From NCBI GenBank assembly GCA_934772045.1, contig CAKVMH010000004.1, positions 7,491-71,490 on the forward strand: a DNA stretch of 64,000 nt, in the 5' to 3' direction. A model generated the notes under the pieces. The model worked only from the letters and a program-made list of their open reading frames with translations. It had not been told where the DNA came from and did not search any database. Source of the DNA: an uncultured Clostridia bacterium (GTDB lineage Bacteria; Bacillota; Clostridia; Christensenellales; UBA1242). A program made the position numbers and the translations under genes. Shown here piece after piece: positions 6,512 through 47,188 of the stretch. The first letter of the stretch is position 1; each line of letters starts with the position of its first letter.

Positions 6512-6558
6512 GTAAATATATTAAACAATCGTTTAATTAAAAGGTTAAGGAGAATTTT

Positions 6559-29243: not shown

Positions 29244-29639
29244 ATGGGGATAAACACAAATTCACACATTGACGATAGATACTTAAAGCCTTTAAAAAAA
29301 TTAGAAAAAGTTAAAACATTGTTAATTGAAACAAACAATAAGAACGAAATTCAAGCAATGATTGACTCGTTAAAGGGTCTTTCAGGTCTAATTCCAAAAG
29401 AAAAATACAATACATTGACGCAAATGATTGTTATTTTGCAAGATATGGAAAAGCAACAAAAGGACAAATGGTTTAAGTTGGACGGGGAGCTTTCTTTTGA
29501 AAATAGATTTTTTAGGCGAAGCGAATTAAAAAATAAATTAAAAAAACTTTCAAAATTGATTGTCGAATTAGGTAACGGCGTCGAAATGATGTACGACTTA
29601 AAAAGTCAAGAAAGTGAGTGTGCTGTGAAGTTATTTTAG
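29244..29639 (+). CDS. Small predicted helical protein, unknown function
   Basis: 131-aa ORF with SD GGAAGG and its own consensus promoter. Lys/Glu/Leu-rich. Confidence 0.7.
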   Translation: MGINTNSHIDDRYLKPLKKLEKVKTLLIETNNKNEIQAMIDSLKGLSGLIPKEKYNTLTQMIVILQDMEKQQKDKWFKLDGELSFENRFFRRSELKNKLKKLSKLIVELGNGVEMMYDLKSQESECAVKLF

Positions 29640-29669
29640 TTACAATTAATAAATGCTAAGGAGGTAAAT

Positions 29670-30122
29670 ATGGATTTTTATGCTTATATTGATTACATGA
29701 TTGTAAGAGAAGATGTGGATGAAAAAGTTAGGGATTTTTATAATATTTTTAGGTATGTGGCAAATTATTTAAGCGAAATTTTTAGTTCAAATGATGAAAC
29801 TTCTAGCGCAGATAATGAACTTTTATCCTTAAGAGTGTATGAAAACCTTATGTATATCGCAAAATCCGATTCTATTGCTGAAATTAAGGAATACATATTA
29901 ACATTGAAACTTTTGTTAGGGCAAATTAAAGATATACATAATCTAAAAGAACAAAATTTGGATATGCAAATTTGTGAGGCGAAGAATTTATTCGTTAAAC
30001 TTTCATTGATAATTAAACTTAAAAAAGAAAAGAAGTTTGGTAAACATTTAGACGAATTAGAAAAATTATGTCAAGACATGAATATGTTTGTTGACCCATA
30101 TTTAAATGCGTCAAAAGTTTAA
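29670..30122 (+). CDS. Small predicted helical protein, unknown function
   Basis: 150-aa ORF with strong SD AAGGAGG, 30 nt after the previous ORF. Confidence 0.75.
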   Translation: MDFYAYIDYMIVREDVDEKVRDFYNIFRYVANYLSEIFSSNDETSSADNELLSLRVYENLMYIAKSDSIAEIKEYILTLKLLLGQIKDIHNLKEQNLDMQICEAKNLFVKLSLIIKLKKEKKFGKHLDELEKLCQDMNMFVDPYLNASKV

Positions 30123-30187
30123 ATTTCGCATTTTAAATAAAAAACGTAATTAATTCAAAATTCGTGCCAACTTAAGTTATAAAATTA

Positions 30188-30215
30188 TTGACAATTTATC
30201 AATAAATGATATAAT
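30188..30215 (+). promoter_or_regulatory. Sigma-A-type promoter TTGACA-16-TATAAT with extended -10 TG
   Basis: Hexamers at 30188-30193 and 30210-30215, with TG at 30207-30208. Confidence 0.65.
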
Positions 30216-30237
30216 ACTTAAATTAATTGGAGAATTT

Positions 30238-30684
30238 ATGGCAAAGACAAAAAATAATGACAAGAATAGTGAATATGGATTGCAAAATACAATTGATGAA
30301 ATTGCTGAAAAAACATCTTTAATAATTGAATATTATCAAAATGTGGATAGAAGGACATCGTTGGGTAGGCAAGTTAAGGTTTTGGAAACAAACCTTCAAG
30401 CATTGCAAGAATCATGCACAGCAGATGCAAGTATAATGTGTAGTTTACAATTTGATAAAAGTTTAAAAGATATCAAATTAAACATTCAAAAAGAGGTTGA
30501 TGAAATGGCTGAAACAATTAAAAATAACAGCCCAACAATCTTTTCTAAAATGTCAATGAACAGGGCATTGAAAGATAAAAAGAATTTACTTGCTTTGGCT
30601 AAAAAGATAATTGAAGACAATGCAAAGTTTCGTGAGCTTTTAATTGCATGCGGTGCCGTTGCGGTACGTGGTAACAAAGATTAA
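30238..30684 (+). CDS. Small predicted helical protein, unknown function
   Basis: 148-aa ORF with SD GGAGAA, its own promoter and a terminator. Confidence 0.7.
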   Translation: MAKTKNNDKNSEYGLQNTIDEIAEKTSLIIEYYQNVDRRTSLGRQVKVLETNLQALQESCTADASIMCSLQFDKSLKDIKLNIQKEVDEMAETIKNNSPTIFSKMSMNRALKDKKNLLALAKKIIEDNAKFRELLIACGAVAVRGNKD

Positions 30685-30703
30685 ACATAGATATAATTAA
30701 GCA

Positions 30704-30729
30704 ATCGTCCACCTAGAAGGTGGATTTTT
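30704..30729 (+). terminator. Rho-independent terminator
   Basis: TCCACC-TAGAA-GGTGGATTTTT. Confidence 0.75.
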
Positions 30730-31073
30730 GCTATGGTTTATTTAGTGTGCGCAAAAAGTCGTTGAACAAAAATTTTAAATGCAAAATACATCTTTATTGT
30801 TTGTTGTGTTTCCTTTGACATTTTAATTATAATATTTTAAAATAAACAAAATAAAGGCAGGTGAAACATGAGCATAAAACTTTAAACTCAGGTTAAAATT
30901 TTAGGCAGATTTTAATTTTTTAATGGTTAAAAATATAACACATTTTTGATTGTGCAATTTTTGCAACGCGTCAAGGCGAGTTTTGTTTTTAAAGCAAATT
31001 AAACACAACCTTTTTTTGAGTATAACGGTGGCGGAAAGCCAAATTGCCTAAATTTATGTTTAAAGGAGAGTTT

Positions 31074-32153
31074 ATGTTTGATAACACAATAAAGAAAATT
31101 AAAAAGGCATATTTAGTTTGTGCATATGCCGATATGTTAGACGCGGAACACCGTGCAAAAGAATTGGAACTTTTAACCAAAAGCGCACTATACGAGATTG
31201 TTAAGTGCAACATTTTCCAACCAAAAGAGTTGAATGCGCGCACATATTTTGGCAGTGGCAAGGCTGAAGAAATACGCGACGAGTTGGCAAGTTTAGGTGC
31301 AGATATTGTCATTTTGGATTGCCCACTTACAGGTTCACAGTTACGCAATTTAGGCGAAATTTTTGACGTTGAAACAATCGACCGCACTATGCTCATTTTG
31401 GACATTTTTGCAGGGCGTGCGAAATCAAGTGAAGGTAAATTGCAAGTTGAACTTGCACAACTTAAATATAGTTTGCCAAGGCTCAGTTGCTTGGAACTTA
31501 ATGCAGAGCGTCAAATGGGCAAAGGCGCGGGCGAAAAATTGAAAGATTTAAGCAAACGCAAAATTCAAGAAGATATCGCAAGGCTTGAAAAGGAAATAAA
31601 GGACATTCAAAAGAACCGCCAAACACAGCGTAAACAACGCCTTTCACGCATGAGAAGTGTGGCACTTGTTGGATACACAAATGCTGGTAAATCTACACTG
31701 ATGAACGCAATTGCAAAGGCCGGCACATACGCAGATGATAGGCTTTTTGCAACCCTTGATGTACTCACCAAAAAAGTGTGGGACGCAGGTGTTGAGTATG
31801 TTTTAATTGATACTGTAGGTTTTGTAAGCAACCTTCCACATGAATTAATGTACGCCTTTTCAGCGACACTGGAAGAAACAATGGACGCTAACGTCTTGTT
31901 GCTTGTTGTGGATGCAAGCGACCCACATAAATACGACCAAATTTCAGTTGTGGAACGTGAATTTAACCGCCTAGGGGTCGACCCAAACCGCATTATTTTA
32001 GTTTATAATAAGGCTGATAAACTTAACAACGCTGAAATACAGCAACTTAAATCCTATCCATACGACACATGTTACATCGGCGCAAAAACTGGCAAAAACA
32101 TTGTTCAGTTAAAGCAAATGATTATTGAAAAGTTGCAATCTTTCAGTTTTTAA
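31074..32153 (+). CDS. hflX: GTPase HflX
   Basis: Start at MFDNTIKK (SD AAAGGAG). GYTNAGKSTLMNA (G1), DTVGF (G3), NKAD (G4), and an HflX N-terminal domain pattern. Confidence 0.9.
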   Translation: MFDNTIKKIKKAYLVCAYADMLDAEHRAKELELLTKSALYEIVKCNIFQPKELNARTYFGSGKAEEIRDELASLGADIVILDCPLTGSQLRNLGEIFDVETIDRTMLILDIFAGRAKSSEGKLQVELAQLKYSLPRLSCLELNAERQMGKGAGEKLKDLSKRKIQEDIARLEKEIKDIQKNRQTQRKQRLSRMRSVALVGYTNAGKSTLMNAIAKAGTYADDRLFATLDVLTKKVWDAGVEYVLIDTVGFVSNLPHELMYAFSATLEETMDANVLLLVVDASDPHKYDQISVVEREFNRLGVDPNRIILVYNKADKLNNAEIQQLKSYPYDTCYIGAKTGKNIVQLKQMIIEKLQSFSF

Positions 32154-32202
32154 ATTAAAATTGTAAAAGAGGAATAAATAATTTAAAACATTAATATATT
32201 AA

Positions 32203-32238
32203 AAGTTTACGGAAATTTGTTTTTTCCGTAACTTTTTA
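32203..32238 (+). terminator. Rho-independent terminator
   Basis: AGTTTACGGA-(loop)-TCCGTAACTTTTT. Confidence 0.7.
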
Positions 32239-32333
32239 TTGTGCGACTGCGTACTATGTAGTATACAAAGGAAATTAAGGCACTTAAGAAACACTTTGTA
32301 AATACATAACAATTAAACACAATAGGAGGAACT

Positions 32334-32540
32334 ATGTTCAACAAATTCTTTGGTGGCAACGATTGCGGTTGCAATGAAGGCATGAACACTGGGTGTGGCG
32401 ATTGCGCTTGGATCATTATCCTTATTTTACTCATCTGCAATTGCGGTTGCAAAATTGACCCATGCTTGCTTATAATCATTTTGTTGTTGCTCTGTGGCTG
32501 TGGTTGCGGTGGCAAGAACACAGGCTGTGGTGGTTGCTAG
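32334..32540 (+). CDS. Tiny Cys/Gly-rich hydrophobic peptide (16 Cys of 68 aa; possibly related to the YjcZ-like tiny-TM family)
   Basis: Strong SD AGGAGGA. Two modules of CGC/GCG-rich stretch plus IIILILL/IIILLLL hydrophobic core. Confidence 0.65.
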   Translation: MFNKFFGGNDCGCNEGMNTGCGDCAWIIILILLICNCGCKIDPCLLIIILLLLCGCGCGGKNTGCGGC

Positions 32541-32711
32541 GAATTGCCACGCCTAAAACTAAAATTTGCCAAGGCATTGGCAAATGTAAACCCTTAGGCG
32601 GGCAATTCCTGCTAACAAGGGACACCACTTAACGTGTTTTCCCTTGTTTATCCTTTCCGAATTAAATAGGATACGGTTGAAAATGCCACGCCTAAAACTA
32701 AAATTTGCCAA
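32541..32711 (+). repeat. Structured 3' region: long imperfect hairpin plus a 28-nt exact direct repeat 139 bp apart
   Basis: GGAATTGCCACGCCTAA...TTAGGCGGGCAATTCC (32540-32601) with inner TTGCCAAGGCATTGGCAA. TGCCACGCCTAAAACTAAAATTTGCCAA at 32545-32572 and 32684-32711. Confidence 0.8.
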
Positions 32712-32765
32712 ACAAAAGTTTGGTGAAGCACAAAAGAAAAATTAAAATAACAGTGGTTTAATGTG

Positions 32766-32791
32766 AAAGGGGCGAAGTAACGCCCCTTTTT
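32766..32791 (+). terminator. Rho-independent terminator
   Basis: AGGGGCG-AAGTAA-CGCCCCTTTTT. Confidence 0.85.
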
Positions 32792-32886
32792 ATAGTTGTA
32801 GGCTAAAAAGTAGTAAATTGATGTTTAAAATTAAGGATTTGGGCAAAAATTTCTTAAAATTTTGTTAAATTTCGATATAAAATCTA

Positions 32887-32915
32887 TTGACATAACTTGT
32901 ACATTGTGTTAAAAT
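32887..32915 (+). promoter_or_regulatory. Sigma-A-type promoter TTGACA-17-TAAAAT (extended -10 TG) for rpoBC
   Basis: Hexamers at 32887-32892 and 32910-32915, ~95-nt leader before rpoB. Confidence 0.6.
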
Positions 32916-33009
32916 CGGTCAGTATGAATAATGCTCGCTAAGGGTTACCTTAAAGTTTATACTAAAGTATAAATATGGCGGGTTTTACAACTGAATAAGG
33001 AGTTAATGG

Positions 33010-36000
33010 ATGAATTCAAACACACTGAACATCAAAAAACTAAAACAAGGCAAGGCTGAACGCATGAGTTTTGCCAAAAAAGAAATCCCTTATGTTATGC
33101 CAGATTTGCTTAGCATTGCAAAAGAGAGTTACGAAAATTTCTTAAATGAGGGCATTGGTGAAGTGTTGAACGAATACAACCCTATCATAGACTACTCGAA
33201 CAAAGCCGAGTTGTCTTTTTTAGGTTATTCTATCGACCGCACACCAAAGTATTCATGGAACGAATGTAAAACTAAACAAATGAGCTACACAGTTCCACTT
33301 AAAGTCAATGTCCGTTTGCTTGTTAAGGAAACTGGTCAAATTATGGACCAAGAAGTGTTCATGGGCGACATTCCTTTCATGAGCAAAGACGCTGGCTTCA
33401 TCTGTAACGGTGTTGAAAGGGTTGTTTTGAACCAGTTAGTTAAGTCACCTGGTGTTATTTTTGGTGGTGAAGTTAACAAGTACGGCCGTATGGATTACAA
33501 TGGCGCAATCCAACCAAGTTACGGTATGTGGGTTCAAACTGAACAAGTTACTGGCGACATGCTCCGCGTCATTGTTGAGCGTAAGTTTAAAATGAGCGCA
33601 GGCGTTTTGCTTAAATGTTTCGGTTACACAAATGAAGAATTGCTTAACATTTTTGATAATCATCCATACATTGTAAACACACTTGAAAAAGAACCACAAA
33701 TCACACAAGAAGATGCACTTATCGAATTTGGCAGGCGCACTCGTCCGGGTGAAATTCCAAACCCAGACAACACTTTAAGTTATATCAACGACCGTTTCTT
33801 CAATCAACAACATTACAACCTTGAAAAAGTTGGTCGTTTTAAAGTTAACAAAAAATTGTCACTTGCAAACCGTATCACTGACCAAATTTCAGCAAGCGAA
33901 GTTAAACTTGGCAAAAAAGTTTTTGTTGGTGCTGGTGAATATATCGACCACGACACCGCAGTTGCAATCCAAAACGCAGGTATCAACTCAGTTGATGTTA
34001 TGGTTGAAGATAAAAAAGTGCGCGTTGTTGGTAATGCTCGTGTTGATCTTAAAGCATATGCAAAACTTGACCCAGCTGAATTTGGCATAACTGAACTTGT
34101 TTACCTTCCATTGTTGCAAGAACTTATGAAAGCAAACAAGGGTGATGAAGAAGGTTTGAAGCAAGCAATCAAAGCAAACGCACACAAACTTGAAGATTAT
34201 CAAGTTACATTAGACGATATGATTGCAACAATCAGTTACCACTTGAATCTTATCGACGGTTTGGGCGAAACTGACGAAATTGATAACTTGTCAATGCGTC
34301 GTGTTGCTACATGTGGCGAATTGCTTAGGGACGAATTCCGTCGCGGTATGACAAAACTTCAAGCACAAGTGCGTGAAAGTTTGCAAAGCCGTGATTTAAC
34401 AGACATCACACCAAGCCAAATTGTAAATGCTCGTCACATCAACAAAGTGTTTAAAGAATTTATGGCAACCAGCCAACTTTCAGCTTTGATGGACCAAATC
34501 AACCCAGCTGCAAGTTTAAGGCATAAACGTCGTTTGAGCTCATTCGGCCCAGGCGGTGTTAAGAAAGAACGTGCAACAGTTGAAGTGCGTGATATTAACC
34601 CAAGCCATTACGGTCGTATCTGTTTGGTTGAAACACCAGAAGGTCAACCTATCGGTTTGATGACATCTATCGCTGCTTATGCGCGCGTTAATAAATATGG
34701 GTTTATTGAAACTCCATTTAGGAAAATTGACCCTAAAACTAAAAAAATTACTGACGAAATCGTGTTCTTAATGGCGGACGAAGAAAGGGGACACTACATT
34801 GCACAAGCAACAGCAGATTTAAATGAAGATAAAACACTTAAAGAAGGCATGATTGCTTGCCGTTATAATGGTCAAGCTGAACGCGTTAACAGCCAAATGG
34901 TTGACTTAATCGAACTCAGCCCAAAACAATGTTTGTCAATTGGTGCAAGCCTTATTCCTTTCTTTGAACACAGCGCAGGTAACCGTGCGTTGATGGGTTG
35001 TAACATGCAATGTCAGGCAGTTCCACTTATTAAAACTGACAGCCCAATAGTTGGTACTGGTGTGGAACATAAAATTGCAGTTGACTCTGGTGCACTTATT
35101 CTTGCTGAACAAGACGGTGTTTGCAAATATGTTTCTGCTGACTATATCACAATGGAATACGCAGACGGTAGCATTGTAAACCACAATCTCCGCAAATTTG
35201 AGCGTACAAACGAAAAAGCATGCTTCAACCAAAAACCTATCGTTAAGAAAGGTGAAAAGGTTAAAGCTGGTGATGTGCTTGCTGATGGCGCTTCAACAGA
35301 TAAAGGTGAAGTGGCACTTGGTAAAAACATGACTGTTGCATTCATGAACTGGGAAGGGTATAACTTCGAAGACGCTATTTTGATTAACCAACGCGTAGTT
35401 CGTGAAGACGCTTATACATCTATTAGTATTCAACAAGTTAAAACAGAGGCCCGCACAACAAAACTTGGCGATGAAGAAATCACACGCGACATCGCAGGTG
35501 TTGGCGAAGACGCTTTGAAGAACTTGGACGAAAATGGTATCGTGCGCGTGGGCACAGAAGTGCGCGTGGGCGACATATTGGTTGGTAAAGTTACACCTAA
35601 GGGTGAAACTGACTTGACCCCTGAAGAAAGGCTTTTAAAAGCAATCTTCGGTGAAAAAACAAAAGAAGTTAAAAACACATCTCTCAAAGTTAAACATGGT
35701 GAAGAAGGTGTGGTTGTTGGCATTGAAATTTTGTCACGCAAAAACAAGGACGAACTTGACGCTGGCGTTAATATGTGCGTAAAAGTTTACATCGCACAAA
35801 AACGTGTGCTTCAAGTGGGCGATAAACTTGCTGGTCGTTATGGTAACAAAGGTGTTGTATCAGTTGTTTTACCTGAATGCGATATGCCTTATATGCCAAA
35901 CGGCGAAACAGTTGATATCTTGCTTAACCCATTAGGTATTCCATCTCGTATGAACTTGAGTCAATTGTTGGAAGTTCACTTGGGTTGGGCTGCAAAACAC

Positions 36001-36684
36001 CTTGATTGGAAGGTTGCAACCCCAGCATTTGATGGTGCATCTGAAGAAGATATAAAAGCATTGCTCCGTGAAAACAATTTGCCAGAAGACGGCAAAATGC
36101 AACTTTACGACGGACGTACAGGCTTACCATTTGATAACAAAACAACAGTTGGTGTTATGTACATGCTTAAACTTGATCATATGGTGGACGACAAAATCCA
36201 CGCACGTGGCATTGGTCCTTATGCACTTATCACACAACAACCACTCGGTGGTCGTAGCCAACTTGGTGGTCAACGTTTCGGTGAAATGGAAGTTTGGGCA
36301 TTGGAAGCATATGGTGCATCAAGGTTGTTGCAAGAAATGCTTACAATTAAATCAGACGATGTGGAAGGGCGTATTAAAACCTATGAAGCAATCGTTAAAG
36401 GTGAACCTATCCCAGAACCTGGCATGCCTGAATCATTCAAAGTTTTGGTTAAGGAAATGCAAGGTTTGTGCTTAGACGTTAAGATTTTAACTGCTGATAA
36501 CCACGAACTTACAATTAACGAAGTAAGTGAAGAAGGTGAAGAAGTTGCAACTGTTGAACCAGTTAATAAACAAGCCCTTGAAGACATCACACTTGAATTT
36601 GACGACATGCAAAAGAATTATGAAAACGATGTAAATACAACCGCATTTGACGAGTCTGAATTGTTTGACGACTTAGACGAGTAG
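33010..36684 (+). CDS. rpoB: DNA-directed RNA polymerase subunit beta
   Basis: 1224 aa with conserved beta motifs (e.g. GRYGNKGVVS, LGIPSRMN, QRFGEMEVWALEAYGA). Confidence 0.98.
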   Translation: MNSNTLNIKKLKQGKAERMSFAKKEIPYVMPDLLSIAKESYENFLNEGIGEVLNEYNPIIDYSNKAELSFLGYSIDRTPKYSWNECKTKQMSYTVPLKVNVRLLVKETGQIMDQEVFMGDIPFMSKDAGFICNGVERVVLNQLVKSPGVIFGGEVNKYGRMDYNGAIQPSYGMWVQTEQVTGDMLRVIVERKFKMSAGVLLKCFGYTNEELLNIFDNHPYIVNTLEKEPQITQEDALIEFGRRTRPGEIPNPDNTLSYINDRFFNQQHYNLEKVGRFKVNKKLSLANRITDQISASEVKLGKKVFVGAGEYIDHDTAVAIQNAGINSVDVMVEDKKVRVVGNARVDLKAYAKLDPAEFGITELVYLPLLQELMKANKGDEEGLKQAIKANAHKLEDYQVTLDDMIATISYHLNLIDGLGETDEIDNLSMRRVATCGELLRDEFRRGMTKLQAQVRESLQSRDLTDITPSQIVNARHINKVFKEFMATSQLSALMDQINPAASLRHKRRLSSFGPGGVKKERATVEVRDINPSHYGRICLVETPEGQPIGLMTSIAAYARVNKYGFIETPFRKIDPKTKKITDEIVFLMADEERGHYIAQATADLNEDKTLKEGMIACRYNGQAERVNSQMVDLIELSPKQCLSIGASLIPFFEHSAGNRALMGCNMQCQAVPLIKTDSPIVGTGVEHKIAVDSGALILAEQDGVCKYVSADYITMEYADGSIVNHNLRKFERTNEKACFNQKPIVKKGEKVKAGDVLADGASTDKGEVALGKNMTVAFMNWEGYNFEDAILINQRVVREDAYTSISIQQVKTEARTTKLGDEEITRDIAGVGEDALKNLDENGIVRVGTEVRVGDILVGKVTPKGETDLTPEERLLKAIFGEKTKEVKNTSLKVKHGEEGVVVGIEILSRKNKDELDAGVNMCVKVYIAQKRVLQVGDKLAGRYGNKGVVSVVLPECDMPYMPNGETVDILLNPLGIPSRMNLSQLLEVHLGWAAKHLDWKVATPAFDGASEEDIKALLRENNLPEDGKMQLYDGRTGLPFDNKTTVGVMYMLKLDHMVDDKIHARGIGPYALITQQPLGGRSQLGGQRFGEMEVWALEAYGASRLLQEMLTIKSDDVEGRIKTYEAIVKGEPIPEPGMPESFKVLVKEMQGLCLDVKILTADNHELTINEVSEEGEEVATVEPVNKQALEDITLEFDDMQKNYENDVNTTAFDESELFDDLDE

Positions 36685-36768
36685 AAAATCTATTCACAAT
36701 TCAGCGAATCCAGGGTTTTGCAATAAAACCCTGTCGAACTGAATTGTTTGACGACTTAGACGAGTAGA
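36656..36768 (+). repeat. 83-bp near-tandem duplication carrying the rpoB 3' end (last 8 codons + TAG)
   Basis: 30-nt exact CTGAATTGTTTGACGACTTAGACGAGTAGA at 36656-36685 and 36739-36768. Between the copies is the hairpin CAGGGTTTT-GCAAT-AAAACCCTG. Confidence 0.9.
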
Positions 36769-36813
36769 TTTTAACAAAACAAACAGCAATTTAGAGAGAT
36801 TAAGGAGAATACA

Positions 36814-37053
36814 ATGGATAAAATTAATGAAGAACAAGTTACCGTACATTTAACAAGGCATGATTACCGCCTGCTAAGCCAATCAAATAGGCCAAATTAT
36901 ACACAATATGATGGTCAAAAAGTTACACGAGATAAGTGGGACGAAATTATGAATTACTTACAAAAACTTAACGATAAGTACTGGAAAAAACATAACAAAT
37001 GCCCAATTTATGTGGAAACAGGTTTGATTGGACAAGAAGGTATATCTAATTAA
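36814..37053 (+). CDS. 79-aa protein of unknown function encoded between rpoB and rpoC
   Basis: Strong SD TAAGGAG 7 nt upstream. No terminator between it and rpoC (35-nt gap). No recognisable motif. Confidence 0.7.
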   Translation: MDKINEEQVTVHLTRHDYRLLSQSNRPNYTQYDGQKVTRDKWDEIMNYLQKLNDKYWKKHNKCPIYVETGLIGQEGISN

Positions 37054-37087
37054 TTTGTCCATTTAAAAAATATTTAGGAGAAAATGA

Positions 37088-40000
37088 ATGTTTGAATTAA
37101 ACAATTTTGACTCAATAAGAGTGGCAATTGCATCACCTGAAATGATAAGGTCATGGTCACGCGGTGAAGTTACAAAGCCAGAAACAATAAACTATCGTAC
37201 ACAAAAGCCTGAAAAAGACGGGCTTTTCTGTGAACGTATTTTTGGACCTAAAAAGGACTGGGAATGCCATTGTGGTAAGTACAAACGCGTGCGTTATAAA
37301 GGTGTTGTGTGCGATAAATGTGGTGTTGAAGTTACGCGTAGCAAAGTGCGTCGTGAACGCATGGGTCACATTGAACTTGCTTGCCCAGTAAGCCACATTT
37401 GGTTCTTTAAAGGTGTGCCAAGCCGTATAGGTATTGCATTGGATATGAGCCCAAAACTTTTGGACGAAGTTTTATACTATGTAAGTTACGTTGTGCTTGA
37501 CCCTAAAAACACTGAATTTGCATACAAACAAGTTATCCGCGATAAAGAATATCGCGAAGCACTTGAAAAGTATGGTCCAAATGGTTTCCGTGCAGGCATG
37601 GGTGCTGAAGCAATTAAAGAATTATTGGCAAATATTGACCTTGAAAAAGAACGCGATGAACTTACTGGAATTATGCACACCACAAAAGGTCAACGCAAAC
37701 TTAAAGCGACAAAAAGGTTGGAAGTTATTGAGTCATTTATCAAATCCGGCAATAAGCCAAGTTGGATGATTTTGGACGTGATTCCAGTTATTCCACCAGA
37801 TTTACGTCCTTTAATTCAAATTGATGGTGGCAAATTTGCAGCAAGTGACTTGAACGACTTGTATCGCCGTGTTATTAACCGTAACAACAGGCTTAAAAAG
37901 TTGATTGAACTTGGCGCCCCTGAAATTATCGTGCGTAACGAAAAGCGTATGCTTCAAGAAGCAGTTGACGCTTTGTTTGATAATGGTAAGCGTGGCAGGG
38001 CAGTGCAAGGTAGCCGTCAAAGAGATTTAAAATCATTGACAGCAAGCCTTAAAGGCAAACATGGTCGTTTCCGTCAAAACTTGCTCGGTAAGCGTGTTGA
38101 CTATTCTGGCCGTTCAGTTATCGTTGTTGGCCCAGAACTTAAAATTTATCAATGCGGTTTGCCAAAAATGATGGCACTTGAATTGTTCCGTCCATTTATT
38201 ATTAAACGTTTGTTGGAACTTAACGCAACAAACAACCTTAAAAAAGCAACAAGAATGATTGAGCAAGAACGCCCAATTGTTTACGACATATTGCAAGAAG
38301 TTGTTGAAGGACACCCAGTTCTTTTGAACCGTGCGCCAACCCTTCACAAACTTTCCGTACAAGCCTTTGAACCTATCCTCGTTGAAGGTAAGGCAATCCG
38401 TCTTCCACCTTTGGCGTGCGGTGGCTTCAACGCCGACTTCGACGGTGACCAAATGAGTATGCATGTTCCACTTTCAGTTGAAGCACGTACAGAAGCCCGC
38501 ATGTTGTTGTTGGCTTCAAACAACGTACTTAAACCTAGTGATGGTAGCCCTAACATGGTGCCTAGCCAAGACATGATTTTAGGTAACTATTACTTAACGG
38601 CAGTGCGCGAAGGTGCATTGGGTGAAGGTATGACATTTGCAAGCACTGATGAGGCACGACTTGCATACGAAAATGGCAAACTTAGCCTTCAAGCAAAAAT
38701 CAATTTGCGCCGTACTGTTGACTTTAATGGTGAAAAAGTTACTGGCCGTATTGAAACAACCCTTGGTAAAGTTATTTTCAACAGCATCATTCCACAAGAC
38801 CTTGGTTTTGTTCCACGCGACACAAAAGAAAACGCACTTCGTTTGGAAATTGAAGACGAAGTTAAAAAAGGTAACTATGGTAAATTGATTGAAACATGTT
38901 ATCGTAAACATGGCACAAACACCACAGTTACAATGATTGACGACATTAAGAACATGGGCTATAAATACAGCACACTTTCAAGCGTTTCACTTTCAATTTT
39001 CGATATGAAAGAAGCAGAAGAACGTGAACAAATCATTGCAGATGCAGACAAAATCGTTCAAGCGAATGACGAAATGTACATGCAAGGTTTGATGAGTTAT
39101 GCTGATAAATATAACAAAAACATGGCTGTTTGGGATAAAGCAGTTAATGACGTTGTTAAAATCACTTCCAGTCATTTGGATAAATTTAACTCAATTAAAG
39201 TTATTATCACATCAAAAGCCCGTGGTGGTGAAGACAGCTTGAAACAACTTTGCGGTGTTATTGGTAACACAGCGGTTGCGTCTGGTTCTGTTAGTGATGT
39301 TCCAGTTAAATCTAACTTCCGCCGTGGCTTAAACCCACTTGAATACTTCATGGCAGCACGTGGTAGCCGTAAACAATTGATGGATACAGCGCTTAAAACT
39401 GCTGACTCTGGTTACTTGACCCGTCGTTTGGTTGATATTGCACAAGATACAACCGTAACAGAAGAAGACTGCTTTGCAAACCTTGGCGAAACAGTTAAGG
39501 GTATTGATGTAACCGAAATTAAACAAAACGGCACAGTTGTTGAAACTTTGGAAGCACGTATTGTTGGTCGTTTCACTGCAATGCCAGTTATCGACCCTAA
39601 AACAAAGAAAGAAATCATTGGTGCAGACTGCTACATTAATGATGAAATGGCAAAAACAATTGCAAATGCAGGTGTTGAAAAAGTTAACATCCGTAGCTTG
39701 CTTACATGTAAGGCTAAAAACGGCGTATGTGCAAAATGCTATGGTCGTGATATGTCAACAAACGACCTTGTTCACATCGGTGAAGCAGTTGGTGTTATCG
39801 CTGCTCAATCAATTGGTGAACCAGGTACACAGTTGGTGCTTCGTACCTTCCACAGCGGTGGTACCGCTTCTAACGATATTACCTCAGGTTTGCCTCGTGT
39901 TGAAGAAATTTTCGAAGCACGCAATCCTAAGGGTGCCGCTGTTATCAGCGAAATCGGTGGTAAAGTTAGCATCAATCAAATTGACAAACGCTTTGAAGTT

Positions 40001-40660
40001 GTTGTTAAAGGTCAAACAGAAGAAAGTTACATTCTTCCATTTGGTTCAACAATCAAAGTTAAACAAGGCGATGTAATCACCCCAGGTACAGCACTCACCG
40101 AAGGTCCATTGAACCCACGTGATGTATTGCGTACACGCGGTGTGAAAGCCGTACAAGAATACTTACTTAACGAAGTTCTTGAAGTTTATAAATCACAATC
40201 TGTTGCTATTAACGCAAAACACTTGGAAATTATTATTAAACAAATGCTTCGTAAAGTTAAAATTGAAAACGCTGGCGACACAGATTTGTTACCAGGCGAC
40301 ATTGTTGATATCCGTGTTTACGAACAAGCTAACCAAAAGGCTTTGGCAGAAGGTGGTGTTCCTGCAACTGCTAAACGTGAACTTCAAGGTATCACAAAAG
40401 CAAGTTTGACAACTGAAAGCTTCTTGTCTGCTGCATCATTCCAAGAATCAAGCAATGTGTTAACAGAAGCTGCCTTGAAGGGTAAAGTTGACCACTTGAT
40501 TGGTTTGAAAGAAAATATCATTATCGGTAAGATGATACCTGCAGGTACAGGTGCACCTGCTTATCGTAATGTCCTTCCAAAACAAGTTAAGGAAGATAAC
40601 AGCCTATTCACAAACGAAAATGTCGACATGAAATTTGACGACATTGATGAAGAAGAATAG
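37088..40660 (+). CDS. rpoC: DNA-directed RNA polymerase subunit beta'
   Basis: 1190 aa with zinc motif [20 protein letters not shown] and catalytic NADFDGDQM. Confidence 0.98.
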
Positions 40661-40794
40661 AACTTAAACAAAATTTCATGCAAAAGGTGGCTTAAAAAGG
40701 GTCACCTTTTACATCAATTTGACGACATTGATGAAGAAGAATAGAACTAAACAATATTTCATGCAAAAGGTGGCTTAAAAAGGGTCACCTTTTT
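40632..40794 (+). repeat. 84/83-bp tandem duplication: rpoC last 8 codons + stop + terminator hairpin, two copies
   Basis: 40632-40710 versus 40716-40793 are near identical (1 indel, 1 substitution). Each carries AAAAGGTGGC-TTAAAAAG-GGTCACCTTTT; the second is followed by a longer T run. Confidence 0.9.
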
Positions 40795-40803
40795 TGTTTT
40801 ACT

Positions 40804-40832
40804 TTGACTTTTATATAAGCCTTTGATATAAT
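40804..40832 (+). promoter_or_regulatory. TTGACT-17-TATAAT promoter ending 6 nt before the ATG (leaderless geometry)
   Basis: Hexamers at 40804-40809 and 40827-40832. ATG at 40839 with no SD. Confidence 0.6.
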
Positions 40833-40838
40833 ATTATT

Positions 40839-41669
40839 ATGAGTTTAAAAGTAAAAATTTCAATTAACAACTTTATTAACAAAACTTACACAAATAAAGA
40901 TGGTGTCGTTTTTCCAACGGTACCAAATAATAACAAGAAATTAGTAAGTGAATTTTTAAACAATTTTTATAAAGCGTTTGAAACCCTTTTTACAGATAAA
41001 CATGAAGCTGAACGTATTTTTATTTCTGCATTAGAAAAAGTTAAATTCGTGCGTTTAGATGATAAGGACAAAAATCTTCATCCACTTAAAGGTGTTTATG
41101 ACGAAATGCAAAAGACTTGCCAAGGACGACGCTTAGATGGCGGAATAACTTATTTAGGTGACGATTTTGTCGCGGTTGTTGATATGGACTATAATTTATT
41201 ATCAAATGAGGAAGCAATGCAAACATTAGTGCATGAATTTGTACACGCGATGACAATAAGAGAAAAGGTTCATGACGGAACAAAGAAGTTAGTTTTAGGT
41301 GTTCAAACACCAAGTGAAAAAAATGAAATTATGACAGCTTTGAACGAAGGCTTAACTGAAATTATCGCCAAACAGATTTATCAAAAAATGTATAATAAAC
41401 CTGTTAAACATGTCAACCGTTATGGTTTTTATCAAATGTGTGTTAATCAACTATTTGATTTGCTGGGCGATAGAAATGAATTAATAGAAGATTATCTTGT
41501 GGATGCAGATTTATTTAAAGAGCGTTTGAAAAAACAAGAAAATGATAAAAATGAAAACATGCTTGACTATATCAAATCTTTAAAGATTAACGATATAAAA
41601 AACAACCCTGAAATTTCTAAAAATTTACATGAATTCAAATTTAAAAAACAAGATAATTTCACAATATAA
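40839..41669 (+). CDS. Putative zincin-like metallopeptidase (HExxH), unknown family
   Basis: LVHEFVHAMT with downstream LNEGLTE (possible third ligand). Confidence 0.6.
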   Translation: MSLKVKISINNFINKTYTNKDGVVFPTVPNNNKKLVSEFLNNFYKAFETLFTDKHEAERIFISALEKVKFVRLDDKDKNLHPLKGVYDEMQKTCQGRRLDGGITYLGDDFVAVVDMDYNLLSNEEAMQTLVHEFVHAMTIREKVHDGTKKLVLGVQTPSEKNEIMTALNEGLTEIIAKQIYQKMYNKPVKHVNRYGFYQMCVNQLFDLLGDRNELIEDYLVDADLFKERLKKQENDKNENMLDYIKSLKINDIKNNPEISKNLHEFKFKKQDNFTI

Positions 41670-41832
41670 TTATTCTTAAATTATTTAAAAAAATAAAATA
41701 AAAACCCCGCTAGAATACTATATTTAGGGCAATTAAGCAATTTTTAATATTTTAAAAAATTTTATTAAAAAACTATTTACAAACTTAATATTTTGTGGTA
41801 TTATATGGTCATAAATTAAAGGAGGCGTTGCT

Positions 41833-42081
41833 ATGATAAACAAAACATATATTGAAAAGGCTAGGCAACAATTTAAAGAAGAAACTACAAAACTTGTAAA
41901 TGAGCTTACAAAAAAACATGGAAAAACTGCCACTCCCAGTTCTCCGTTAAAACCAAAATCAATTGAAACAGGTATTAAGGAATTTAGTGATTTAGTTGCT
42001 AAAAGAGCTGAATATTTAGCTAAATCTGGTGAATATTTAAACTATTTAGGTAATTCAAACGACAATACAATAACCGCTTAA
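41833..42081 (+). CDS. Small 82-aa protein, unknown function
   Basis: Strong SD AAAGGAGG. The terminator stem begins inside the last codons. Confidence 0.65.
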   Translation: MINKTYIEKARQQFKEETTKLVNELTKKHGKTATPSSPLKPKSIETGIKEFSDLVAKRAEYLAKSGEYLNYLGNSNDNTITA

Positions 42082-42097
42082 CCACAGCGGTTTTTTT
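42066..42097 (+). terminator. Rho-independent terminator
   Basis: AACCGCT-TAACCAC-AGCGGTTTTTTT. Confidence 0.8.
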
Positions 42098-42272
42098 GTT
42101 TTCTTATGGCAAATGCATGTATCTTCCACAGGTTTATCTATTGCATTAAAATTGTGTTCAAAATTGTTTTACTTAAATGAAATTATGTGTTATCATATAT
42201 TTTGATGAATAATGTCAACTGCTTTTGTTTCTATTTTTATGGCAGTTTGTTCTAACAAAGGAAAGGTATTTT

Positions 42273-42542
42273 ATGAAAGATTTAGTTTATCCAGCAGTAT
42301 TATATAAAGATGATGAAAAGGGCACCAACACAGGTTGGTACACAATTTCAATTCAAGATTTAGGCATTGTAACCGAAGGTGCAACAGTTGTGGAAGCATT
42401 CATTAAGGCAAAAGAATATTTGTGTGCGACCATGCAATGTGCAGTTAAATTTGATTGTGAAGTTGAATCACCAACCGATTTTGAAACTGTCTATAATGCC
42501 AACAAAAAGCATATCGTTTTGCTTGTAGACGCATTAATGTAA
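42273..42542 (+). CDS. HicB-like (UPF0150) antitoxin-fold protein
   Basis: Start at MKDLVYPAVLYKDDEKG. YPAV..KDD.G.Y.I...DLGIVTEGATVVEAFIKAKEYL resembles the HicB N-terminal domain. Confidence 0.6.
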   Translation: MKDLVYPAVLYKDDEKGTNTGWYTISIQDLGIVTEGATVVEAFIKAKEYLCATMQCAVKFDCEVESPTDFETVYNANKKHIVLLVDALM

Positions 42543-42557
42543 TAAAAGGATTTGCTT

Positions 42558-43085
42558 ATGACAAAAGTTAACGCACAAAACTGGGCGCAACTTGATTTTT
42601 TGATTAACAACTTTTATGAAATCGTTGAATATAAGCGCGGTCGTGGCGTGTATGGCGATAGGGTGGTGTTAAAACGCCCACTTCATGTACAAACTTTGCT
42701 TGGCGAAGTCAGCCGTTTGTACGAGTTTTACTACATGGACGCTAATGCTGTTAAAGAATTACCGCGCACAATCATGGAAAAGATAAAAGTCATATTAAAG
42801 ATTGTTAATTCGCCTGAAAACATGAACATTTTATGCAATTATACACCCACAAATGGTGTTGAACCAACCGAATGGGCTGTGACAACTGCAAACCAGCTTC
42901 AAGCCCTAAATTCAATTAATTTTGAAGTGTTGAATAATGCGCTAATTGAAAGGTACAAGTTATTAGGGAGTGAGTTTTTATCACTTTTAAAGAAACATAG
43001 GGAAAAACAATATTTTTTGGCAAGCAGTGAAGAATTTAACTTTATAACTAAAGAATACGCAACCGAGCAATTGTCAAGGATTTAA
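42558..43085 (+). CDS. 175-aa protein, unknown function, immediately downstream of the HicB-like gene
   Basis: ATG at 42558 with SD AAAGGA, 15 nt after the HicB-like stop. Confidence 0.65.
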   Translation: MTKVNAQNWAQLDFLINNFYEIVEYKRGRGVYGDRVVLKRPLHVQTLLGEVSRLYEFYYMDANAVKELPRTIMEKIKVILKIVNSPENMNILCNYTPTNGVEPTEWAVTTANQLQALNSINFEVLNNALIERYKLLGSEFLSLLKKHREKQYFLASSEEFNFITKEYATEQLSRI

Positions 43086-43110
43086 AATTGGCTCTTTTGG
43101 CCAATTTTTT
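43085..43110 (+). terminator. Rho-independent terminator
   Basis: AATTGG-CTCTTTTGG-CCAATTTTTT. Confidence 0.6.
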
Positions 43111-43238
43111 CAATTTTCGACATCATAAATATCATCAAATTCTTTATTTCGACATAACTAGTGTTTTTTCTTTGGTTAAAACTGGAAATTAATCTTAAAC
43201 TAATTCTAGTAAACTTTAAAAAACACGCCTATTTTCGT

Positions 43239-43267
43239 TTGACAAAAAAGTCCATATTTTATATAAT
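43239..43267 (+). promoter_or_regulatory. Sigma-A-type promoter TTGACA-17-TATAAT
   Basis: Hexamers at 43239-43244 and 43262-43267. Confidence 0.65.
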
Positions 43268-43297
43268 TTTTTAGATTTACTAATATAGGAGAACATA

Positions 43298-46200
43298 ATG
43301 AAATCATTTACAAAGTATTTTAAAGTAATCTTATGCTTTATGGCGTTCGCTGTGGCAAGCTTTTTGTTCGCTTTTGCACCAACATTGTCCAGCTACGCAG
43401 CACTTCAAACAAGCATTAGTGGCTACAATATGGCTATTAAAGCAGTTAAAATGCCACGCAAAGCCTATGTTGATGAAACAACAGGTGCACAAAGTTTGCG
43501 CGTGCCACTTCTTACAACAGGCAATTCTTGGCAAGACACTGCTAAATACACAATCCGTGTAATTGACCCAAGCTTCACAGCTCACGATTTTAATGTTGAT
43601 GGTGCAAATGGCTCCACAAATGAAGCTGATGCTGGTTATTTCACAAAAATTAAAGTTAATGGTACAACAGTTGTTAAATCAACAGATGAAGGCTACGACA
43701 CCGCAAGCGGTGACGAGTTTGTTTCAATCAGCGCACTCAACAATGGTAAATATGACATTATTTACATTATGCAAGAGGGCGATGGTGAAAACGCTAAACG
43801 TTATTATTCTAACACCTATTCAATTACAGTTGAAAATGTTAGCTATAGTCTTGATTTTTCAATTCAAACAGAAGGCGAGTCAAAAGGCTTGAAAGTTTTG
43901 TTGCCTGAAACAGTTGCAAAATCAAATCAAGACAGCGCAAAAATTGCTTTACCAAAAGCAAATGTTAAAAACAACAAGTCAAAAGAATGCCTTGAAAATG
44001 TAAGCGTTGCTCCAAAAGTTTTCAACGATTATGGTAGGGAACTTAGCGAAGGCGAAATCTTCAAAAAGGAAGGGGACAACTATTATTTGTGCCCAACAAC
44101 TGAAGGTAAGTATACAATTGAATACACTTACGCATATGGTAACAACCCACCTAAAAAGTCTTTCACAATTGAAGTTGTTGACGGTTTTACAAAGCCAACT
44201 TCAAGTGATTTGACAATTGCAACTCCTACAATGCCTAGTGTTGAATTAGGTCAAAAAGAAGTTAAGTTACCAGATGTTACAGTTAGCAACAAAACAACAG
44301 ACGATGTTGAGCACAATGTTGTTTCAATTGAAATTAGCAAAGGTAGCATTTCAAAGAAATTAACAAATAATACATTTACTTTTGACATGACTAGGGAATT
44401 CTTTGAACAGTCAAAATATGACAATATGTTTGGCGCGTGGTCAGTTAAGTATACAATTCAAGATGCATATGGCAATGAGAAGTCAATTACGATGCAACTT
44501 GAAAATGTTGTAGACAACACAAACCCAGACGTATTCATGGCTTATGACTATGATATTGACACTACAACAGGTTTACCAGTTAATGCTGACAAAATTGACA
44601 CAACAGTTGTAACTGAACTTAAACCTGAATATGGTTACAATGAATTGTATTTCCCAGCAATTTACGCCAAGGATAATGTAACTGCTTACAATGAGTTTAT
44701 TTTTGTGCGTTACATTCAAAGCACACGTACAGACACAATTTACTACATTGATAATGTAATTGAAAAAGATGGTGAACGCCATGTTATCACTGCTGAAACA
44801 GATGCTGAACTTGCAAGCCAAATGAATGCATCTGGCGACGCAAATATTGGTTCACAAAACAAAGCTGTTAAATTTGATTTCAATGTTGAAGGCGAAACTG
44901 AAACAGAAAAGAATGCTAAAAAATCAGAACTCTCTGGCGAATATAAATTAGGTTATATGGTTATAGCAAAAGATAAGACCAAACAAAAAAGCTACTTATA
45001 CTCAGCAAACACAACCATGTATACCTTTGAAATTTTGCCTACACCAACAAGGGATATCACAACTTCAGTTGATCACACTGTTGAAATTAACAACATTAAA
45101 GATGGCATTTCAATTGCGAGCGATGGCAAACTTTCAGTCAACATAACAGCAAATGAAAAGAAACGTGGCGATTCAACAACTTATGCTGATAAACGCCTTA
45201 AAACTGCAGTGTTCTATTACTACACAACAACATCTACAAATATTAAAGGCGACATAAAATCAATCTTTGACAGCGTTAAAACTGACAGGGCAACAAACCA
45301 TGTTTACTATGGTAGTGAACACATCATTGATAGCGAAGCATTCATAACTGCAATGAAGGCTAAATTTACAGGCTTTGAATATGCAGAATTAAAAAATAAA
45401 AACAATTATGAATTGACTCTTAAAGATTATCAATCAAGTTATGGCAAACAAGCACATGTAATTGCAATTTCTATTGACGACGATGGCAACATTGCACTTG
45501 CAGACAAGCTTTTGAACATTAAGGACATGAACGATGTTACAGCCCCAAGTTGGACTTTGCTTTCAGGTGTTGGGCATGAACATAGTTTCACTGATACAGC
45601 ATTAGAAGTTAAACAAGGCACAGTTATTGAACTTCCTGACATCGAATTCACTGATGATGATAAGACATTAAGCATGAATGTTACTTACTATGTTAACTCA
45701 CCTATTAATGAATTAACAGGTTTTGATTATAAGGCGCCTATTGGTAAAAATTACAAAAATGTAAATGGCAAATCAATTGTTTATGGTGGTCAAATTAAAA
45801 CTGACATTGTAGGTGAATATCATGTTGTATATTCAGCAACCGATGATGCTGGCAACACAACATATGTGTACTTCACATTCAAAGTTACACCAGATGCTGA
45901 CCCAATTTTGAAAGTTTCAGCGACAGGTGAAGATATTACAGTTTCAGGTGCAAGTTCAATTACCGGCGAAATCGGTATGCAAGTTAACTTTGACGCAGTT
46001 TTATGGTCAAATGATTTAACACAAAACTTAACGAACGAATCTGGCGTTGTAATTGACTATACTGTTGAAGATGGCGGTAAGAGGTGGAGCACTGGTGATG
46101 ACGCAACAAGCTTCATTTTCAGTGAACAAGGTGATTACTACATCACTTTCACAGCAAAATATGGCAGTTACAATATTGAATCACAAAAATTCACAATCAG

Positions 46201-47188
46201 CGTTTCTCGTCCTGACCTTGAATGGAATGAAACATTGAATGAAAAAGATTACAGTTATGCTCCTAAAGATAGTTGGGTTTCATTACCTGATTTAAGTGCT
46301 TCTCAAGGCGATATTAAAGCCAAAGTTGAATTGAAAGTTACTTTCAAAGGTGAAAGCCAAACTGTTAAAAAGGAAATTATAAACGGAACAACTGTTTGGA
46401 GATTTAAAACAAACGCAACACTCACAGGTGATTACAAAGTTGAATACACAGCAACAACTGCGTACAGTTCAATTAAGAAATCATTTACAATCAAAGTAGG
46501 CGATAATGTTCCACCAATTATCAGTATGGAACATGTTGCAGATTTAGCACAAGACCTTATTTACGATGGCAAGACAAGCATTGAATACAAAATCTACTTG
46601 TATCCAACATTGACATCAAGTAAAGAACGTCAACTTAAAATCACAATCACAAATGGTAGTGATGTTAAGACTTACGATACAAAATTAAAGATTACAGATA
46701 AAGACGAAAACGGCGAAGTTAAAGAAATTAACTGGAACAGTTTGACCGTTGAATTGATGAATGGCAGTTCAACTATGAGTGCTAGCGCAAGCAGTGATCA
46801 AAGGTACACTAAGACATACAGCATTAGTTCAACTGGTGATTATAAATTAGTGCTTAAAGTTACCGACAGCAATTCAAACACAACAACTAAAGAAATTAAG
46901 TTCACAGTTAAAACTGAAACTGAAGTTGAAAAGAAAAATGATACAGTTGTAGGCGTTGTTCTCATCGTATTGTCATTGGTTGTTCTTGCTGGTGTTATCT
47001 TGTTCTTCGCTTTAACCGGCAAAGGCGAGGGTGGTTCAAACAAATCTAAATCTTCAAAACAAGTTAAAACAACAAAATCAGTTGAAGAAAACAAGGTTGA
47101 AGTTTTAGAAGATACAAAAGTAGCTGAAGATGTTGAAGTTGAATCAGAAGCTCAAGAAACTGAACCAAAATCTGGCGATGTTGAATAA
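43298..47188 (+). CDS. Large surface protein with repeated Ig-like (DUF5011-like) domains, C-terminal TM anchor and acidic tail
   Basis: Signal peptide. Recurrent D-x-T/N-x-P-x motifs (DNTNPDVF, DVTAPSW, GDNVPPII). TM helix VVGVVLIVLSLVVLAGVILFFAL near the C-terminus. Confidence 0.85.
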   Translation: MKSFTKYFKVILCFMAFAVASFLFAFAPTLSSYAALQTSISGYNMAIKAVKMPRKAYVDETTGAQSLRVPLLTTGNSWQDTAKYTIRVIDPSFTAHDFNVDGANGSTNEADAGYFTKIKVNGTTVVKSTDEGYDTASGDEFVSISALNNGKYDIIYIMQEGDGENAKRYYSNTYSITVENVSYSLDFSIQTEGESKGLKVLLPETVAKSNQDSAKIALPKANVKNNKSKECLENVSVAPKVFNDYGRELSEGEIFKKEGDNYYLCPTTEGKYTIEYTYAYGNNPPKKSFTIEVVDGFTKPTSSDLTIATPTMPSVELGQKEVKLPDVTVSNKTTDDVEHNVVSIEISKGSISKKLTNNTFTFDMTREFFEQSKYDNMFGAWSVKYTIQDAYGNEKSITMQLENVVDNTNPDVFMAYDYDIDTTTGLPVNADKIDTTVVTELKPEYGYNELYFPAIYAKDNVTAYNEFIFVRYIQSTRTDTIYYIDNVIEKDGERHVITAETDAELASQMNASGDANIGSQNKAVKFDFNVEGETETEKNAKKSELSGEYKLGYMVIAKDKTKQKSYLYSANTTMYTFEILPTPTRDITTSVDHTVEINNIKDGISIASDGKLSVNITANEKKRGDSTTYADKRLKTAVFYYYTTTSTNIKGDIKSIFDSVKTDRATNHVYYGSEHIIDSEAFITAMKAKFTGFEYAELKNKNNYELTLKDYQSSYGKQAHVIAISIDDDGNIALADKLLNIKDMNDVTAPSWTLLSGVGHEHSFTDTALEVKQGTVIELPDIEFTDDDKTLSMNVTYYVNSPINELTGFDYKAPIGKNYKNVNGKSIVYGGQIKTDIVGEYHVVYSATDDAGNTTYVYFTFKVTPDADPILKVSATGEDITVSGASSITGEIGMQVNFDAVLWSNDLTQNLTNESGVVIDYTVEDGGKRWSTGDDATSFIFSEQGDYYITFTAKYGSYNIESQKFTISVSRPDLEWNETLNEKDYSYAPKDSWVSLPDLSASQGDIKAKVELKVTFKGESQTVKKEIINGTTVWRFKTNATLTGDYKVEYTATTAYSSIKKSFTIKVGDNVPPIISMEHVADLAQDLIYDGKTSIEYKIYLYPTLTSSKERQLKITITNGSDVKTYDTKLKITDKDENGEVKEINWNSLTVELMNGSSTMSASASSDQRYTKTYSISSTGDYKLVLKVTDSNSNTTTKEIKFTVKTETEVEKKNDTVVGVVLIVLSLVVLAGVILFFALTGKGEGGSNKSKSSKQVKTTKSVEENKVEVLEDTKVAEDVEVESEAQETEPKSGDVE

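Follow-up and report, generated by a model that had tools for sequence, protein, structure and literature searches.

The window, by which we mean the whole 64,000-nucleotide stretch of DNA analysed here, carries the genes for the β and β′ subunits of RNA polymerase (RNAP), rpoB and rpoC, separated by a spacer of 403 nt that contains an open reading frame of 79 codons, orf79 (Table 1). The translation of this ORF, the length of the spacer and the TAAGGAG Shine-Dalgarno (SD) sequence that were given in a preliminary description of the same DNA were all reproduced. Pfam RNA_pol_Rpb2 domains were seen on the RpoB of a related locus, L001, which is 99.7% identical to the RpoB of the window. The ATG of orf79 is in the same frame as rpoB and lies 129 nt after its stop codon. 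Expression as a read-through fusion to β was considered and rejected, as an in-frame TAA occurs about 13 codons past the rpoB stop (read by eye); in the relatives that we refer to below as group B, the ORF and rpoB do not share a frame.

In consensus scans of positions 32000-42000, the strongest promoter-like and terminator-like sites of the plus strand bracket rpoB-orf79-rpoC. The promoter-like site upstream of rpoB is presumed to be the start of the rpoB-orf79-rpoC transcript, and the terminator-like hairpin after rpoC is presumed to be the operon end. The spacer itself had been described as free of promoters and terminators, and the scans bear this out: no sigma-70-like promoter and no intrinsic-terminator-like site was found within 36685-37087, with the caveat to the promoter scan that a weak promoter-like match (9/12) is present inside rpoB at 36487-36515. 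The conserved stem-loop of the spacer is not terminator-like in the same kind of scan. Given a spacer that carries neither kind of site, orf79 probably shares its mRNA with rpoB and rpoC. Translation of orf79 in the window and its nearest relatives (group A, below) would start from its own strong SD sequence. In six other loci (L022, L024, L020, L042, L050 and L051) the start codon is only 2-22 nt past the rpoB stop, suggesting that in groups B and C translation may be coupled to rpoB termination. An inverted repeat (TTTGATTGGACAA / TTGTCCATTTAAA) extends across the orf79 stop codon (window 37023-37067). We also observe that a TTGTCCATT motif 3′ of orf79 is kept in group A, and that a related CACCATTAAA remains in the ORF-less loci L012 and L013.

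Table 1. Features of the rpoB-orf79-rpoC region and of the hairpin arrays of related loci. Positions refer to the window unless a locus is named.
Feature	Position	Strand	Remarks
Promoter-like site upstream of rpoB	32887-32915	+	TTGACA, 17 nt, TAAAAT, TG extension; 11/12 matches, consensus only
rpoB (RNAP β, 1224 aa)	33010-36684	+	Acidic end ...ESELFDDLDE
Repeat copy 1 (30-nt direct repeat)	36656-36685	+	Last 8 rpoB codons, stop and one base
Conserved stem-loop	36697-36746	+	Outer stem CAATTCAG/CTGAATTG, middle CGA/TCG, inner CAGGGTTTT/AAAACCCTG
Repeat copy 2, non-coding rpoB-tail copy	36739-36768	+	100% identity, period 83
orf79 Shine-Dalgarno TAAGGAG	36801-36807	+	6 nt before ATG; kept in group A relatives
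orf79	36814-37053	+	79 codons; ATG 36814, stop 37051-37053
rpoC Shine-Dalgarno AGGAG	37076-37080	+	Kept in all loci, with and without the ORF
rpoC (RNAP β′, 1190 aa)	37088-40660	+	
Intrinsic-terminator-like hairpin and T-run after rpoC	40765-40793	+	12 pairs, tail TTGTTTTACT
Hairpin array, window and L006			1 hairpin each
Hairpin array, L003 and L005			2 hairpins each
Hairpin array, L004	5599-5965		4 hairpins; period 84, 4.4 copies, 99% identity
Hairpin array, L032 (ORF-less)	6173-6377		2 hairpins; period 86, 2.4 copies

Outside the operon, rpoBC of the window is not linked to rplKAJL or to rpsL/rpsG, and an HflX-like GTPase is encoded upstream (29244-32153 and 40839-47188 inspected). Eight of ten neighbouring ORFs have no Pfam match; these include ORFs of 131, 150, 148, 276, 82, 105 and 177 aa and one of 1296 aa (43298-47188). 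The lineage-specific C-terminal tail of RpoB, used as the query against GTDB genomes (one for each species), identified 51 loci (related loci are named here with the prefix L), nearly all of which carry the label Candidatus Onthoplasma, uncultured Clostridia or Christensenella and originate from metagenome-assembled genomes of the human, chicken, sheep, rabbit and other guts. NCBI places Candidatus Onthoplasma in the Christensenellales. According to a paper of 2025 (PMC12306168), Onthoplasma corresponds to the GTDB family UBA1242, its genomes are smaller than 1 Mb and are without most biosynthetic pathways, and an obligate symbiont or parasite lifestyle has been suggested for it.

When the spacer was shuffled 5000 times with its dinucleotides preserved, an ATG-started ORF of at least 79 codons arose in 24 of the shuffled sequences. 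By the method of Nei and Gojobori, dN/dS is 0.13-0.16 in three group A pairs, 0.20 for L022/L024 and 0.29 for L050/L051, with a dN of 0 in the flanking codons of rpoB and rpoC. Conservation and these ratios together place orf79 well beyond what is expected by chance, and we conclude that it is a genuine protein-coding gene under purifying selection. The proposal that the ORF is a real, lineage-specific gene thus stands, with selection on its amino acid sequence, a conserved SD and relatives that are confined to Ca. Onthoplasma. Its retention in a genome of less than 1 Mb also argues for a function where the gene is kept. The synonymous sites of orf79 are distinct from those of its neighbours: between the window and L002 its dS is 0.56, three times the 0.19 of the adjoining rpoB-end and rpoC-start codons, and its GC3 is 0.27 against 0.32-0.34 in the flanking rpoB and rpoC codons, suggesting weaker selection on translation or on codons, or a different recombination history.

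Relatives were collected at several depths. Two close relatives (97% and 81% identity) were picked up when 5.8 billion proteins were searched with a word index, and an exhaustive HMMER search of 1.84 billion representatives found four credible members, adding a protein of 76 aa (58% identity) and one of 72 aa (32%); two further borderline HMMER matches, to repeat proteins, are regarded as spurious. With a profile of all members, the whole family comprises about 14 clusters among the 5.8 billion proteins, and further small ORFs were detected by reading the rpoB-rpoC spacers of all loci directly. The proteins fall into group A (window, L001-L006, L009, L010, L033 and L036), group B (L022 and L024) and group C (L042, L050, L051 and L058), with L020 being intermediate but nearer to group C. 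Across all groups a core of about 45 residues can be aligned gap-free (V.LT..(D/E)Y.LL ... G..V....(W/Y)..I...L..L), and the group A profile matches that of groups B and C with an hhalign probability of 80% (P 1.4e-5, 50 ungapped columns); on the basis of the gap-free core and this match, the three groups are treated as one family. The divergence within the family is considerable, as identity between groups is 11-25% for orf79 and about 90% for RpoB. The JGI metagenome contigs, searched with the group A profile, contained no relatives. The preliminary description raised the question of whether homologs always sit between rpoB and rpoC, and they do so in every member with visible context; the genes outside the operon vary among members, being an HflX-like GTPase, an LRR protein or an acetyltransferase. 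As there are no Pfam or NCBIfam matches to orf79 (two listed Pfam matches are below their cut-offs), and as no published account of a gene at the rpoB-rpoC junction emerged from a literature search, the family appears here as a previously undescribed orphan family restricted to Ca. Onthoplasma. A duplicated part of rpoB or rpoC was tried as a source of the protein and rejected (hhalign P 0.15 and 0.39, respectively).

The length of the spacer varies between 11 and 661 nt among the loci. Of the GTDB species loci, 49 show both gene ends; five of them are outgroups and lack the ORF, and in the remaining 44, the ingroup species genomes, orf79 is present in ten and absent from 34. On a neighbour-joining tree of concatenated RpoB and RpoC proteins, a single gain demands at least nine losses among 36 tips, and unconstrained parsimony needs five changes. 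Two of the ORF-less loci, L012 and L013, nest inside group A, have a C-terminal part of RpoB that is 97% identical to that of the window, and retain the hairpin together with the second rpoB-tail copy, both described below. The 34 genomes without the ORF, and the nested position of L012 and L013, show that orf79 is dispensable and exclude a required stoichiometric core subunit; the earlier expectation that the protein would be made stoichiometrically, in the manner of an RNAP core subunit, is therefore not supported. Absence from close relatives had been named in the preliminary description as an argument against an RNAP subunit or regulator, and such absence is real in L012 and L013, whereas other relatives keep a conserved ORF.

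The part of the spacer upstream of orf79 carries a conserved stem-loop between two copies of the 3′ end of rpoB, and the 3′ arm of the outer stem is formed by the first 8 nt of the second copy. The region 36640-36830 folds more stably than expected (z = -3.9). Across ten species 90.8% of the cells of the stem-loop are paired and six pairs show compensatory changes, a level of covariation that was reached in none of 500 shuffles; slid registers are 31-45% paired. Comparison of the loci reveals that the repeating unit consists of the last 30 nt of rpoB plus a hairpin of 53-56 nt, and that it forms a variable-number tandem repeat of one to four hairpins, always closed by an extra copy of the rpoB tail (Table 1). 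L003, L004, L005 and L006 encode an identical 76-aa protein despite their differing numbers of hairpins, so this is a copy-number polymorphism within one species. A 120-aa gene has been called through the tandem repeats of L004 (5595-5957); it is almost certainly a gene-calling artefact, the frame being open through the repeats because the unit of 84 nt is a multiple of three.

The two copies of the rpoB tail do not diverge independently. In L001 a synonymous change in rpoB (GAC to GAT) is repeated in the non-coding copy, and in L033 four differences from the window are common to both copies (the stretches compared in the window are 36664-36685 and 36747-36768). The copies in L001 and L033 thus evolve in concert, likely by gene conversion, unequal exchange or re-duplication. 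Pairing does not explain the change in L001, because the changed base lies in a stretch that is predicted to be unpaired. Within window 36650-36775, two segments, CAATTCAG and TCTATTC, have alternative pairing partners: copy 1, which includes the rpoB stop codon (locally about -13 kcal/mol), and copy 2 (about -31 kcal/mol). It may be speculated that the two pairings constitute a translation-sensitive alternative structure.

The preliminary description referred to an rpoB-end duplication flanking the ORF, of which orf79 might be the cargo. The exact 30-nt repeat is real, but it is not flanking, as both copies are upstream of orf79. That an event or mobile element duplicating the 3′ end of rpoB brought in the gene is suggested by the adjacency of repeat and ORF in the window. 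However, groups B and C have no repeat although they carry the ORF, and L012, L013 and L032 have the hairpin and repeat but no ORF. The hairpin/repeat module is thus separate from orf79, and because each is found without the other we reject the cargo explanation, whose probability we regard as close to negligible. The absence of relatives from the viral contigs searched, and the sub-threshold noise that was all that PHROGs and PADLOC returned, also speak against it. A phage or defence origin of the protein was rejected on the same results, together with a Foldseek search of BFVD that gave nothing with E<2.

Further irregularities of the rpoB 3′ end are seen in loci without the ORF. In L034 the rpoB-tail motif TTTAGATGATT is present in three copies spaced about 30 nt apart, with inverted ATCTAAA copies interspersed (6198-6295), and the rpoB 3′ end of the lineage appears to be generally slippage-prone. 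In L032 the array is followed by about 130 nt of comparatively GC-rich sequence (6378-6514) containing a stem-loop (GCCACGC...GTGTGGC) and a palindrome (CTAGATATTTATATCTAG), which could be a small RNA or a remnant.

The structure of the window protein was modelled by AlphaFold2 (AF2) with an alignment of 14 family sequences, giving a mean pLDDT of 81, and above 90 over residues 11-60. The predicted topology is β1 (residues 8-10), α1 (15-22), α2 (27-32), β2 (36-38) and α3 (39-60), that is, a core of approximately residues 8-60, followed by a tail (61-79) that is predicted to be disordered. A second AF2 model, of a 56-aa member of group C, has the same topology (pLDDT 84.5). The protein is near-neutral and without an acidic tail, and the prediction is of a soluble β-α-α-β-α domain, about 50 residues long, to which a variable, disordered tail is attached. 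Foldseek searches of the PDB with both models, and of BFVD with the first, gave nothing with E<2. Considered together, dN/dS and the two models indicate a real gene whose product is predicted to be a folded domain.

This bears on whether the peptide matters at all, since the ORF could be a relay in which translation alone is important, ferrying ribosomes over an expanded spacer, from the end of rpoB to the beginning of rpoC. The spacing is suggestive: in ORF-less species 11-60 nt separate the rpoB stop from the rpoC start, and where the ORF is present its end is 10-59 nt from rpoC in all groups, and in groups B and C its start codon follows the rpoB stop by 2-22 nt. A functionless peptide is nevertheless difficult to reconcile with an amino acid sequence that is constrained (dN/dS 0.13-0.29) and with a fold that is confidently predicted and conserved, and rpoC keeps its own SD everywhere; we consider the relay very improbable.

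The best PDB sequence match of the family profile is helix B of the Arc repressor, at an E value below significance (0.095-0.12). It raises the alternative that orf79 encodes a ribbon-helix-helix (RHH) nucleic-acid-binding regulator of the Arc/MetJ/CopG type, which would autoregulate rpoBC or act on the adjacent hairpin. The likeness lies in the G-x-x-V-N/T-x-x-x-Y/W-x-x-I/V-M sequence that opens the last helix of orf79, and hhalign aligns the strand, helix A and helix B of Arc with the family (probability 57%, P 1.1e-4). The proteins are similar in size to Arc, Mnt and CopG, and their N-terminal strand alternates hydrophobic with polar or basic residues. However, the Arc match is sub-threshold, the family profile does not match Mnt (hhalign P 0.16) or CopG (P 0.39), and no Pfam RHH family is matched at E≤10. 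The AF2 topology, with two strands by DSSP and three helices, has an extra helix and a second strand with respect to strand-helix-helix, and Foldseek returned no RHH protein, with the qualification that the topology was judged on monomer models and the RHH strand pairs across a dimer. RHH identity was therefore rejected, and a regulator of this type seems improbable.

A second pointer leads to the N-terminal domain Ia of the NAD+-dependent DNA ligase LigA: PDB 1b04 (E 0.6-0.8), phrog_6466, a small phage "DNA ligase" (E 0.084), a 75-aa "DNA ligase" in BFVD (E 4.5) and the Foldseek matches 6ksc and 7k72 (E about 9, TM-scores of at most 0.42). Only the loop and last helix of orf79 align with this domain (hhalign P 0.008 over 27 columns). 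As all of these matches are sub-threshold, membership of the LigA domain Ia family was rejected, and the resemblance is a weak lead rather than a relationship. A fragment of an FGE-sulfatase (SUMF1, PF03781) was also discarded, with an hhalign probability of 1.6% and no Pfam match; the E value of 9e-4 of P0005 is obtained solely by summing three repeats.

What remains to be weighed is whether the protein acts on RNAP. Based on its operon context, orf79 may be an optional RNAP-associated accessory factor, a reading that we prefer to its rivals but put forward tentatively and rate at a little under even. The gene would have arisen, or been acquired, once in the rpoB-rpoC spacer, and would then have been inherited with the operon under very fast divergence and repeated deletion. 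Its product, made together with β and β′, would bind RNA polymerase or β/β′ assembly intermediates; it would not be a core subunit but a dispensable factor that modulates the enzyme or helps in its assembly. Several observations sit uneasily with such a factor. Between groups, identities of 11-25% set against about 90% for RpoB imply a poorly conserved surface, which is unusual for the partner of a highly conserved enzyme, and synonymous divergence and GC3 differ from those of the flanking genes. The gene is missing from most of the ingroup, L012 and L013 included, and if gained once has been lost at least nine times. No residue or indel of RpoB or RpoC cleanly tracks presence of the ORF, the best columns being conservative and following the phylogeny. 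The position itself says little about RNAP binding. As rpoB and rpoC always stay together, a gene that arose between them would be expected to remain there, whatever its role.

The main alternative is an orphan protein, born de novo or captured, whose function is unrelated to RNA polymerase, and we take this to be credible, though clearly short of an even chance. Such a gene would persist because the site provides constitutive expression and cannot be broken up, and its position would carry no information about a partner; this account of its persistence we regard as plausible to the same limited degree. Patchiness with repeated loss, extremely fast evolution compared with RpoB and RpoC and the lack of covariation with either are in its favour, as are the surrounding genome, which is rich in orphans (Pfam-less ORFs being eight of the ten neighbours), and a spacer that is unusually plastic in this lineage. 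On the other side, where the operon of a large complex also encodes a small protein, that protein is often a subunit or an assembly factor of the complex, and no search points to another partner or function. The accessory factor may also be stated in a fuller form, as a novel RNAP accessory protein with a fold without detectable relatives, perhaps of de novo origin in the spacer of a reduced-genome symbiont, translated from the mRNA that also encodes β and β′, and acting in assembly or modulation, with the hairpin and repeat possibly tuning its dose. We regard this version as rather doubtful.

The rpoB-rpoC junction is among the most invariant gene adjacencies of bacteria, and a selected protein-coding gene inserted there is rare. 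If the orf79 product does bind RNAP, it would extend the list of lineage-specific accessory factors by one that has a new fold and comes from a host-dependent, uncultured gut lineage of almost unknown biology, and the ten species with the gene and 34 without it would offer a natural presence/absence series for the study of such factors. If it does not, orf79 would be a clean case of an orphan, fast-evolving small gene, and an example of how "guilt by operon" can mislead.

With respect to known systems, archaeal rpoH (Rpb5-like) offers a precedent: it has about 80 codons, specifies a small subunit and belongs to the operon that encodes the large RNAP subunits. It is universal and essential in archaea and lies immediately upstream of rpoB. 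No homology was detected between the two; orf79 is like rpoH in size and operon setting, and differs in being bacterial, patchy and dispensable. The preliminary description could see no resemblance to the small Firmicute subunits or to L7Ae/YbxF, and our comparisons agree, as none of these families is matched in Pfam or NCBIfam at E≤10. Delta (RpoE, PF05066) is a protein of about 170 aa with an N-terminal HARE-HTH domain and a long acidic C-terminal tail, and was rejected for a near-neutral protein of 79 aa without such a tail. Epsilon (RpoY/YkzG, DUF1447, about 70 aa) was rejected in the absence of a match or of a related PDB structure by Foldseek, and omega (RpoZ; RNA_pol_Rpb6, PF01192) and L7Ae/YbxF (PF01248) for want of a match. 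To our knowledge, none of delta, epsilon and omega is encoded between rpoB and rpoC, and we know of no report of the β-α-α-β-α topology for any of them. Although they have no sequence similarity to orf79, the delta, epsilon and omega subunits of Bacillota are small (about 70-170 aa), non-catalytic, taxonomically restricted, not required under laboratory conditions and produced together with the core enzyme, and they represent the functional class that the operon context suggests for orf79.
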